Below, one piece after another: positions 51,742 to 63,629 of a DNA stretch of 64,000 nucleotides. The notes below the pieces were generated by a model, which saw nothing but the letters and a program-made list of their open reading frames with translations, did not search any database and was not told the origin of the DNA. Origin of the DNA: Candidatus Hydrogenedentota bacterium (GTDB lineage: Bacteria > Hydrogenedentota > Hydrogenedentia > Hydrogenedentales > GCA-2746185); assembly GCA_046583315.1 (NCBI GenBank), contig JAYGCN010000288.1, forward strand, positions 24,807 through 88,806, given 5' to 3'. Made by a program: the position numbers and the translations under genes. Numbering within the stretch: the first letter of the stretch is position 1; each line of letters begins with the position of its first letter.

Positions 51742-52089
51742 ATGAGCGACATCACCATCTATCACAATCCGCGATGCAGCAAGAGTCGCCAGACCTTGGC
51801 ACTGTTGAAGGAGAAAGGTGCTGACCCCGTCATCATCGATTACCTGAATGATCCGCCATCGGTAGAAGACCTCCGCGCGATTCACGAGAAACTCGGGGGA
51901 GAGGCGAGTGCGCTGCTTCGACGCAAAGAAGCTGAATATGCTGAATCAGGTTTGTCTTCCAATTCAGCACCCGAAGCGATCTACGAAGCGATCACCTGTT
52001 ATCCGAAGTTGCTCGAGCGCCCCATCGTTGTTCGAGGTGGGCAAGCGGTGATTGGACGTCCGCCGGAGACTATCGAGCAGCTATTCTAA
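51742..52089 (+). CDS. arsC: Glutaredoxin-type arsenate reductase / ArsC family protein
   Basis: YHNPRCSKSR and PKLLERPIV motifs; substrate not demonstrable from sequence. Confidence 0.8.
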   Translation: MSDITIYHNPRCSKSRQTLALLKEKGADPVIIDYLNDPPSVEDLRAIHEKLGGEASALLRRKEAEYAESGLSSNSAPEAIYEAITCYPKLLERPIVVRGGQAVIGRPPETIEQLF

Positions 52090-52861: not shown

Positions 52862-54792
52862 ATGAAACTTGGTACCTTAGTGAAACGAAGAGAGCGCTCG
52901 GGGAAGCGCGTTACCATTCCGCCTCGTGCATTGCTTTCCATGTTTTTGAGTGCCGTCGCGCTCACGGTTGCCCTGTCCTATTAGGCTCCCTTCTTCTATC
53001 GCTATCTGACGACCCCAACCTACGACAACGCGCTATTCGTGTTCGGATACAAGGATCGTCTGTTCAATTACGCGACGCATGAGACCTTGAAGTCGATCAG
53101 TTTCGAAGGCGATGCCTACAATGTGATCACCTCAAAAGCCGGTAGACGGCTGGACGAAATCATCGCGATTTACAACGCCGGCGAGGACCAGACCTTGATG
53201 GTCACATTGTTAAGCGGCATTCTGGGTGGAATGGGTCTCGTCATCATCTGGATCCAGGCCTACCCTCGGGAGAAGAAGGGACGCTCGACAGGAATCATCG
53301 CCATTTTACTGGTGGGGCCGCTGTATTTTTGAATTGGACAAATGTCTCGCTTCGCAGTGCCAAAGATATCAAGGCTCATGAAATCGCCCAACCCTTTGTC
53401 CAGGGTGACATGGCGATACTGAGTTTTTCATCCATTCACCAAAATGCGTCTGAGTTGCTGTCCTCTTTGATGAATCGGGGAGCACCGCACGACGCGCTTG
53501 ATCTCGAACGCAACAGCTATTTTCACCATGCGGCCGAATTCGGTCGCACCAAGATGCTCGTCATTTTGGCTTCCTACCCCGATGTGGAATTGAATTCGCA
53601 AAACGAACTTGGGCAGACCCCCGTCCAGATTGCAACTGAAAAGGGTTACGTGGAATCCGTAGAATTTTTTCTGAAACGCGGAATTGACGCGTCCAATGAA
53701 GATGCCGAAGGGCGAACGCTACTGCACAGGGCCGCCGCAAATGAAGACGCGCCGATGCTTGAACTTCTGCTGAAGTATACGCAGGGACTCAATGAACTTG
53801 ATGACAATGGTATTTCGCCCTTGTCATTGGCGGCCGATCGTTTGAATTTGGACACCATCACCATGCTGCTCGATAGTGATGCCGATGTAAATTCCCTGGT
53901 GGACGATGCGTCGACATTTTTTGAGGCCGCCTTAGTGGGGATATTGAACACGGCACAATCGAAAGAAGCGTTCACCGCTGAAGACGAGACGCGCGTGATT
54001 GATTTGACGCGACGCATGCTGGAAATGGATGCCGATCTGACACGTCGGAACGCGGAAGGCGAGAGGCCGTTGCATTGGGTTACCGATGCGCACGATACTG
54101 TATATGATGGCACCGACAATGATTCACTGCTCTCAGCACTCACCGCACTACTCGTGGAATATGACGCGCCTACCTCTGCCGAAAACGACGATGATGTTCA
54201 GGCGCTGCCGTTGGCGCACGTTATCCGGCATGGATACGACCAGTGGCTGGAACAGGTCATCGACGCGAACCTTGCGAGTTTGAACTCGATAACAATCGAG
54301 AAAACGACCCTCTTTCAATATGCGGTTGAATACGGAGACGCCAAAACGCTTGCCATGCTGTTCGATAAAGGGATGAAGACGAAGCCCTGGAGCCCCAAGT
54401 CTATCGATCCGCTCAAGTATCTCATCGAGAAAAACGATCTGGCCACCGCGCGCATTTTATTGGAGCAAGGGTATGCCAAGCCGAAAGAAAGCGCTATTCC
54501 AATAGATGGCCCATTGCATCTTGCAGCACGTCTTAACCTGGCGCAGATGATCGAACTGCTTCTGGAGTTCGGCTACGATGTGAATGTTCCGGGATCCCGT
54601 GGGAATACGCCCTTGCATGATGCCGTGACGACAAAGAGCACGTTCGCGATCCTTACGCTAGTCGAAAATGATGCCGATCCGCTCATCTGGAATAGCGATG
54701 CGCTCACGCCGATGCAACGCGCGCGCGATCTGGGCAATCCCAGTGTGCTTGATGTCCTCAAGCGTGCCGTGCGTGAGAAACAATCGAAATAG
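52862..54792 (+). pseudogene. Membrane-anchored ankyrin-repeat protein interrupted by in-frame TAG (52982-52984) and a frameshift in T5 (53326-53330)
   Basis: ATG 52862 reads MKLGTLVKRR...LTVALSY*APFFYRYL, in frame with ORF 53039..53332; one extra T joins that ORF to ankyrin ORF 53329..54792. Confidence 0.65.
53329..54792 (+). CDS. Ankyrin-repeat region (intact 3' part of the interrupted gene)
   Basis: GQTPVQIA, GRTLLHRAA, GISPLSLAA, GERPLHWV, GPLHLAA and GNTPLHDAV repeats. Confidence 0.85.
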   Translation: MNWTNVSLRSAKDIKAHEIAQPFVQGDMAILSFSSIHQNASELLSSLMNRGAPHDALDLERNSYFHHAAEFGRTKMLVILASYPDVELNSQNELGQTPVQIATEKGYVESVEFFLKRGIDASNEDAEGRTLLHRAAANEDAPMLELLLKYTQGLNELDDNGISPLSLAADRLNLDTITMLLDSDADVNSLVDDASTFFEAALVGILNTAQSKEAFTAEDETRVIDLTRRMLEMDADLTRRNAEGERPLHWVTDAHDTVYDGTDNDSLLSALTALLVEYDAPTSAENDDDVQALPLAHVIRHGYDQWLEQVIDANLASLNSITIEKTTLFQYAVEYGDAKTLAMLFDKGMKTKPWSPKSIDPLKYLIEKNDLATARILLEQGYAKPKESAIPIDGPLHLAARLNLAQMIELLLEFGYDVNVPGSRGNTPLHDAVTTKSTFAILTLVENDADPLIWNSDALTPMQRARDLGNPSVLDVLKRAVREKQSK

Positions 54793-61633: not shown

Positions 61634-61680
61634 CTTACTCTTTCTTTGAGGGGAAAGAAAAAGTAGGCAAAAAGAAACCG
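61634..61680 (-). repeat. Intergenic palindromic repeat, copy B
   Basis: Minus strand reads CGGTTTCTTTTTGCCTACTTTTTCTTT-CCCCTC-AAAGAAAGAGTAAG. Confidence 0.5.
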
Positions 61681-61800
61681 GATTGCTGCTACGCAACCCT
61701 CTGGTGGGTAGGTAGAACTGATTGGGGAGGAGTTATTTGGGCTCTGGAGGAGGGGGCATAAACCTTACTACTAGCGGGAAAAGCACTTTTCCTATCATTT

Positions 61801-62952
61801 TCATGATTCCACCGGTTGGCTTCGAATTGGCTGCGCTGGCGAACTTGCCGAGGCCCAATGGTCGTGGATATCGCTGGACGCGGCCCGTGTCGGGGAATCC
61901 AACGCAATTCCCGTGGCATCGGCGATACGATTCATGCGCTCGAAGTTTCCGATGACCGCTGCGGAATCCACCAGCGCTTCGAATCCCAGCGTGTCGATGA
62001 TGGCTGCGTGCGCTTTGATGACTTGTGCATCCGATCCCTTGACGACCGCATCGACGATCGCGCACAACAGATCGGCATGTGCGATACCACTGTCTTCGGG
62101 CGCGGCACTATCGTTCACCACGTTGATGTCGACTCCGTCTCCCTGCATCTGACCACTCCCACGGAGCAGTAATGCGTGCGAAGACGTTCAGTAGAAACAT
62201 TCATTGATGGCGGACACGCGCGCCGCGATCAATTCAATCTGCAAGCGATCAATCACGCGATTTCCCGGTGCGCGAAAATCCGGTATGTCTTTCACGCTGA
62301 GATACATCGCGTCCGAAAGTCGCGCGAGGTTGCGCACTTCGTCGGGCACCAGACTCATCGAACGCAACACGTTCGGCATGCGCGGGTATCCGTGGTACAA
62401 CATTTTTTCCGGCTCGGCGAGATCGCTCACCTTGATCATCGGCACCCAACCGCCACTGTCGGACAAGCCTTGGGGTCGATAGCCCGTCGCGACATCCGAG
62501 GTTGACTCCGGCAACGGTTCCACGGGCAATCCCAACGCGCGATGAAACGCGTCGATACTTTTCAAGATGGAAGCGATGCCTACGATCTCCACCCACTGCG
62601 AATCTGACAGACCTGCGCGCAACGTCTTTTCGTAAAAACTTTTGCTGAGGCGTTCGGCGTCTGAAGAAATGCGATGCACCGTGTTGGTAGCCAAATCTGA
62701 AAGTACGCCGCTGCAATCATGGGTGCCCTTTACCGAATTGGGGGAGAGGGCGGCCTTGCTTTCCCTGCACAACGCGCAGGTTTCCGCGTAACGTGATTCG
62801 TCAGCTATAGCAACGCGTTCTGCACTCGACCAGCCCGGTCCAGGCGCGGCAATATGCGCCCATGCTGCCCGGAACGACTCCGCTAAATCCAGCCGAATCG
62901 ATTGCTCAAGCCCTGAAAAATCGAATTGTTCCAGCGTGTTCATGGAATCCAT
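61801..62952 (-). CDS. AhpD/carboxymuconolactone decarboxylase-like putative selenoprotein (TGA 62188-62190 = Sec); true 3' end may be 61733
   Basis: ORF 62188..62952 ends ELIAARVSAINECFY-TGA; the frame continues TSSHALLLRGSGQ into ORF 61801..62148, giving the AhpD motif CxxUxxxH. Confidence 0.8.
62145..62175 (-). promoter_or_regulatory. Candidate bacterial SECIS hairpin
   Basis: +13 to +43 after UGA: GCAU-U-ACUGCUC-[CGUGG]-GAGUGGU-CAG-AUGC; the apical loop carries GU at +26/+27. Confidence 0.7.
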
Positions 62953-62999: not shown

Positions 63000-63629
63000 T
63001 TACCGATAATCCTGCACACGCGTTTTCTTGGTGAAGGGATTGTAGTAGAGTTCCATGATCATTACGTCGTCCTCAATGACCAGCATCGTCGCTCCCGAAG
63101 AATCGAATTCGCGTTGCAGCGCGCGGATCGATTGCGATGCCAGCGCTTCCAGATCGCCTTCCTGAATGTCCGACGCCGTGTTGCTTACGTACAGCGTCAG
63201 CAGATTCTCGCGCACTTCAACCCCTGTGATGAGTCTCGGCGCAAAATTATTCCATGCGTCAATCAGACGATGCGCAAATGCCTCCGCCTGTTCCGTCTCC
63301 GCGATGATCGTACCAGCGTTGCCCGTTAACACGCCGCTACTTTTTAGCGAGGACGCATCCGCCCCAGAATCCTGCCCCGCCAAGTCCACCATCCACCGAC
63401 TGCCGAACATCGCAATCACCACCAACCCTACGCCGATTCGTATCAGCATCTGATGCCGACGTTTTTTCTTGCGACGTTTGTGTCGATACTCCTTCGCGTC
63501 CTCCAGAAAGGTGCTGACCAATCCGTTCTCGCGCAGGATACGTCGCGCGTCCCCAATCGTGTGCGCCGCGATGGTACCTGAGCGTTGCTCTCCATAGGCG
63601 TTGTCAGCTTTGTACACATACTTAATCAT
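63000..63629 (-). CDS. Single-pass membrane protein with a PilC/GspF-like N-terminal motif
   Basis: YVYKADNAYGEQRSGTIAA...ARRILRENGL, basic stretch, one TM helix, then an unknown soluble domain; GGAG upstream. Confidence 0.7.
   Translation of the reverse strand: MIKYVYKADNAYGEQRSGTIAAHTIGDARRILRENGLVSTFLEDAKEYRHKRRKKKRRHQMLIRIGVGLVVIAMFGSRWMVDLAGQDSGADASSLKSSGVLTGNAGTIIAETEQAEAFAHRLIDAWNNFAPRLITGVEVRENLLTLYVSNTASDIQEGDLEALASQSIRALQREFDSSGATMLVIEDDVMIMELYYNPFTKKTRVQDYR

Follow-up and report, generated by a model that had tools for sequence, protein, structure and literature searches.

An AhpD-like gene of family NF041238 from a Hydrogenedentota bacterium: a probable selenocysteine codon, a putative metal site and a frameshifted tail

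Whether a TGA ends a gene or encodes selenocysteine (Sec) is the question raised by the minus-strand open reading frame (ORF) 62188..62952 in a 64,000-nucleotide stretch of DNA from a Candidatus Hydrogenedentota bacterium (contig JAYGCN010000288.1, positions 24,807 to 88,806; the whole stretch is called the window below). The ORF encodes 254 amino acids and terminates in NECFY-TGA. Beyond the TGA the frame stays open (TSSHALLLRGSGQ) and runs into ORF 61801..62148 with no further stop. An earlier note had joined the two ORFs into one tandem AhpD-like protein. Translation confirmed the joined frame, which in the window allele would give on read-through 383 amino acids with Sec at position 255 (U255), and both motifs named in that note were found in it: CALC at residues 59–62 and C-x-x-U-x-x-x-H at C252-F-Y-U255-T-S-S-H259. 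The features concerned are the following.

61733..62952, minus strand: whole NF041238-family gene in its intact allele, 406 amino acids with Sec255
Window allele of the same gene, minus strand: one base missing near 61858, last position 61801, 383 amino acids
62188..62190, minus strand: in-frame UGA, very probably selenocysteine 255 (TGA in 70/70 family genes, Cys in 29/32 database proteins that span the site)
62152..62170, minus strand: upper stem-loop of the selenocysteine insertion sequence (SECIS), +18 to +36 after the UGA, loop CGUGG

The in-frame UGA and its read-through

The read-through product was matched to the NCBIfam model NF041238 (AhpD_rel_CFYUT) at 407.6 bits (cut-off 175; E 4.9e-122). 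Because the match covers model positions 1–348 of 357, the joining of the two frames is beyond chance. By its score the gene is certainly a member of this family, and the CFYUT/CxxU motif of the family is present as C252-F-Y-U-T. The gene is single-copy in the genome.

NF041238 is already described and curated. It is equated in a 2026 review (PMC13188914) with the Sargasso Sea selenoprotein ‘hypothetical protein 1’. The 2005 report (PMC1088965) describes the latter as a CXXU protein with four Sec-containing sequences, homologues that have Cys instead, and a SECIS prediction. The window gene shares with it the full-length match, CFYUT, CxxU, a single Sec and a SECIS after the UGA. It differs in the frameshifted C-terminus of the window allele; the intact allele belongs to the long-tailed subtype (about 400–410 amino acids). 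No biochemical study of the family was found in the literature searched, and the available parts of PMC2398784 and PMC13326102 contain nothing specific on it. The selenoprotein call corrects the annotation and adds no new family.

The UGA column was compared at the DNA level in 70 family genes from 68 loci, the window gene included. TGA with an open frame beyond it was found in all 70, and TAA or TAG, which the earlier note had held to be incompatible with its reading, in none. Most of the loci came from two class-wide searches, of which the top 30 hits each were used; NF041238 matched 48 of 201 genomes in one sampled class and 85 of 151 in the other. At the protein level, 120 of 448 homologues were listed. 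As had been predicted for genes split by gene callers at the UGA, 117 of these ended at C-x-x (CFY or CYY); the three that continued had Cys, Cys and Arg. In a second set (150 of 1464 representatives), 104 ended at C-x-x, 32 spanned the site and 14 were partial. Cys occupied the Sec column in 29 of the 32 spanning sequences (printed rows, read by eye). Homologues with Cys or TGA at this column and with similarity on both sides were what the earlier note had expected.

The SECIS was analysed in the same 70 genes, with 500 synonymous recodings drawn from the genes' own codon usage as control. Its 7-pair stem (+18 to +36) was paired at 97.8%, versus 55.0% (maximum 62%) in the recodings. The pair +19:+35 alternates between C-G (51), A-U (15) and G-C (2). 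Codon +8 is CTC in 70/70, and codon +9 is CGT, CGG or AGG but never CGC. By this comparative evidence the hairpin is conserved at silent sites. The loop, C-G-(U/G)-G-N from +25, agrees with the consensus given in the review (PMC13188914): a loop of 3–9 nt, 16–37 nt after the UGA, with a G at the first or second position of the loop.

The genes for Sec synthesis and insertion, which the earlier note had proposed as a check, were all four present. Contig C271 carries selA (576 bits) and selB (329 bits), and contig C299 carries selD (268 bits) and tRNA-Sec (78), each above its cut-off; the tRNA was called SeC(tca) by ARAGORN. A GC content of 0.53–0.54 is common to C271, C299 and C207. Among six other gene-bearing genomes tested, selA was above cut-off in five. 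SelD is the Cys form and gave no sign of Sec use, and no internal stop, hence no sign of Sec use, was seen in the six formate dehydrogenase-like matches of the genome.

Some observations weigh against read-through. Taken alone, the window hairpin (91 nt) is unexceptional (z −1.54; equally good folds in 19 of 200 shuffles). A crude scan for TGA codons accompanied by a Cys motif and a SECIS-like hairpin passed 154 sites genome-wide, most of them noise. One genome with a family gene (G003, 88% complete) had no selA match. The 70 genes are not independent, since their loci are related to one another and were picked as the top family-model hits.

If the UGA were a true stop or a nonsense mutation, the locus would hold two separate genes or a pseudogene, and database entries do exist for each half on its own, among them one for the 115-amino-acid downstream ORF of the window (P0149). 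The invariable TGA, the Cys in full-length homologues, the silent-site conservation of the SECIS and the full Sec machinery argue the other way, and the split point falls inside the CxxCxxxH motif. A true stop is thereby made extremely improbable. The Sec machinery, the TGA/Cys column and the SECIS support the earlier assignment: the UGA at 62190–62188 (minus strand) very probably encodes selenocysteine by read-through.

Other TGA codons in the genome were also looked at. Seven sites were chosen by eye: one was over the Trx7/PDZ selenoprotein cut-off, five gave looser redox- or selenoprotein-related matches and one gave no match. Likely selenoprotein genes lie at C46:31955-33307, C309:1639-2892 and on C94, C272, C101, C77 and C303; their kinds include Trx7/PDZ (NF041199, above cut-off), PrdB-like and five peroxiredoxin-like W-U-P-x-C frames (three scanned). 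On C186:25761-27266 (L090, minus strand), a 502-codon read-through frame holds a DF-family (seleno)protein domain above cut-off with MerT- and CopZ/MerP-like parts. Its last part has an in-frame TGA in SPT-U-PAC, and it is a candidate multi-domain heavy-metal selenoprotein. SelD itself (C299:31379-32287, L004) is part of a longer open frame of 771 codons that contains CAGCGSK; an oxidoreductase-SelD fusion would be of this size.

Within the window's own phylum, 3 of 135 genomes matched the family. The copies of two same-family genomes (L009 and L010) are 35% and 29% identical to the window gene, which stood apart from them in a midpoint-rooted FastTree tree; no horizontal transfer is claimed, because the tree carries no clade test. 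A tblastn search against plasmids gave zero matches, and a homologue search with residues 250–362 alone gave 237 candidates, none significant. Tandem family copies were seen in L031 and L073.

The two AhpD-like halves

The predicted model has two AhpD-fold domains per chain, and the following sites were assigned in them.

62176..62235, minus strand: putative C-terminal AhpD active-site hairpin with E240, C252, Y254, U255 and H259, the five relay positions of PMC3141380
62476..62952, minus strand: predicted N-terminal AhpD-fold domain, residues 1–159, without the AhpD proton relay
62674..62778, minus strand: C59, C62, H78 and H93, predicted from co-variation as a Cys2His2 metal site, the metal probably being Zn

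AhpD proteins use a relay of Glu(−12), Cys, His/Tyr(+2), Cys(+3) and His(+7): Glu118, Cys130, His132, Cys133 and His137 in AhpD, and Glu36, Cys48, Tyr50, Cys51 and His55 in PA0269 (PMC3141380; also PMC6300522). All five positions are occupied accordingly at the C-terminal site, and the residues are nearly invariant. U255 aligned at Cys133 of Mycobacterium tuberculosis AhpD, the residue that cross-links to AhpC. The fold and the relay positions are shared by the C-terminal half with AhpD-like peroxidase-related proteins (TIGR01926; PDB 2pfx, 2prr and 6k40; M. tuberculosis AhpD; PA0269); the match to TIGR01926 reached 34.6 bits, below the 81.8 cut-off. Unlike these single AhpD-like proteins, the window protein is twice as long, with an extra degenerate AhpD domain and with Sec for the second Cys. 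The sequence makes an AhpD-type reductase role of the C-terminal site likely.

Sec255 would be inserted by SelB, which with Sec-tRNA would bind the hairpin 25 nt downstream of the UGA. The E240/Y254/H259 relay would then activate U255 for attack on a hydroperoxide or a peroxiredoxin disulfide. By analogy with AhpD, C252 would resolve U255 to a selenenylsulfide, to be reduced by a donor.

Two observations weigh against this assignment: in Burkholderia thailandensis AhpD the first Cys is more important than the second (PMC6626918), and neighbouring genes gave no clue. The 909 ORFs clustered from the loci (mostly 1.5 kb flanks) formed a largest group of 5 loci, with no conserved operon and no hint of a substrate. 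A different chemistry at the Sec site, such as reductive dehalogenation like that of the AhpD-fold debrominase Bmp8, is improbable. Matches to peroxidase-related AhpD proteins were stronger, Bmp8 was absent among 11 profile hits, and no neighbour family of any kind recurred. Bmp8 (PDB 6ohi) is a single domain of 187 residues with no sequence-profile match to the window protein, and no literature joining Bmp8 or debrominases with AhpD was found.

The earlier note had proposed a tandem-AhpD enzyme with one CxxC and one CxxU site. The tandem fold in two halves was borne out by the predicted model, but two equivalent catalytic sites were not, the N-terminal CxxC being without a relay: V47 stands at −12 and K66 at +7, and the family has V/L/I and K/R there. 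Because these residues replace the relay Glu and His, the N-terminal CxxC is probably a metal site instead. C59, C62, H78 and H93 occur together in 316 of 330 sequences and are all absent in 5; H78 is replaced by Cys in two (one clear, one ambiguous). In proteins P0152, P0164 and P0252 at least one of the two C-terminal redox residues is gone, and all four N-terminal ones are kept. These three and P0033 have a Sec column occupied by Arg, Gly or Leu together with the N-terminal Cys/His set, and may be non-redox members.

Both sites might still be redox-active, the CxxC for instance passing electrons to the Sec site. The N-terminal half has an AhpD fold, its CxxC is nearly invariant, and E52, conserved in 282 of about 330 sequences, is nearby. 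A profile comparison of the two halves aligned C59xxC62 with C252xxU255, which favours this reading. The match is weak (probability 40%, E 3e-4), and neither model had a Foldseek hit at E <= 0.001; both points weigh against the overall reading of the protein as two AhpD-like halves. Set against a redox role of the CxxC are the residues at −12 and +7, the joint retention or loss of the four residues with His-to-Cys swaps, and the three proteins that keep all four without an intact C-terminal site. Dual redox activity is considered unlikely, and a metal site at C59/C62/H78/H93 fairly probable from these patterns; it may bind a metal such as Zn. The N-terminal half would be a degenerate AhpD domain that replaces the dimer partner subunit, as in Sestrin2.

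Human Sestrin2 (PDB 5cuf) also has two AhpD-fold domains per chain, at 11% identity. Its active site, a single Cys with the relay, lies in the N-terminal domain, and the motif is lost from the C-terminal one (PMC4674687); in the window protein the active site would lie in the C-terminal domain and has CxxU. A literature search on a sestrin/AhpD tandem origin found no title on a bacterial tandem form. Pfam includes a sestrin model (PA26), and the sestrin family was absent from the Pfam matches of 72 members at E 0.1. It is a long shot that NF041238 selenoproteins correspond in bacteria to the sestrins. Both would then be single-chain AhpD pseudo-dimers that go back to one ancient duplication, and the bacterial form would have a Sec active site in one half, a Cys2His2 zinc site in the other and a C-terminal helix that takes it to lipid peroxides in membranes.

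The frameshifted C-terminal tail

61858..61859, no strand: site of a one-base deletion (base present in X2, X5, X6, X8 and X9, absent in X1, X3 and X7)
61733..61858, minus strand: conserved C-terminal tail, out of frame here, 41 codons and the stop

Homologues end in L-G-L-x-x-F-A-S-A-A-N-T. In the window the frame of this motif differs from 61858 downwards (ORF 61733..62065). A profile of 68 homologue tails scored 36.2 bits in the motif frame versus −0.8 in the frame followed by the earlier note; the best of 500 shuffles scored 7.6. The intact product has 406 amino acids, and the window allele has 19 unrelated residues in place of the last 42. The end at residue 383, which had been taken for the C-terminus, is not that of the family.

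Alleles were surveyed in 8 of at least 20 runs, each as contigs; the runs that carry this DNA are marine or vent metagenomes. The extra base after 61858 was present in X2, X5, X6, X8 and X9, from five studies (X8 with 25 letters on one side). It was missing, as in the window, in X1 (possibly the source run), in X3 from the same study (P1) and in X7 from another study (P4). An assembly error as source of the missing base was ruled out by X3 and X7. Since public contigs carry both forms (5 intact, 3 deleted), the deletion is a natural allele; it looks recent, because X9 has a window-like tail haplotype with the base. The haplotypes differ at 14 or more positions in 61748–61853, the lists being incomplete: of the 14 listed, 9 are synonymous in the tail frame, and none of the 6 inside the earlier note's frame is synonymous there. 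The shallow depth of the allele contigs (2–12.6) weighs against these assignments.

It is a real but less favoured possibility that read-through is right and the window allele is inactive through the deletion. The lost tail motif was detected in 66 of 69 homologous genes (loose pattern), and the deletion looks recent. On the other side, the deleted form occurs in two studies, neither the SECIS nor the rest of the frame is damaged, and the shift falls past the last long core helix (residues 324–347). Some activity may remain, with the LGLxxFASAAN helix and the tail extension lost. The hydrophobic moment of the window's out-of-frame tail was 0.56, versus 0.61–1.02 in 42 long homologue tails, a comparison without a control; binding of the tail to a membrane is a guess.

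Genomic surroundings and significance

The gene lies 47 bases after a 209-amino-acid ORF. Promoter and terminator counts were close to chance. Peroxiredoxin-like ORFs (by eye) follow the family gene in L048 and L054. The neighbouring features of the window are listed here.

61680..61699, minus strand: terminator-like hairpin, 34 bases past the intact-frame stop (4 such sites versus 3.4 expected, not above chance)
63000..63629, minus strand: the 209-amino-acid ORF, weak GspF N-terminal match, a basic stretch then a hydrophobic helix
57225..61579, minus strand, downstream of the gene: DtxR-like regulator, then an ABC transporter (solute-binding protein, permease, ATPase), probably for iron
53329..54792, plus strand: ankyrin-repeat-like ORF (by eye only)
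51742..52089, plus strand: ArsC-like ORF (by eye only)

The locus is best read, with good confidence, as a member of the known family NF041238 in which UGA is very probably read as Sec, with two predicted AhpD-like halves that likely form a thiol-dependent peroxide or disulfide reductase acting through C252-x-x-U255, in an allele that lacks one base. What the locus adds is modest: the frameshift allele and the sestrin-like architecture. The latter gives a structural reading of a widespread, uncharacterised selenoprotein family, in which two AhpD folds stand in tandem as in sestrins, with a single catalytic site (CxxU) and probably a metal site. The naturally segregating frameshift allele offers a ready test of the role of the conserved tail.
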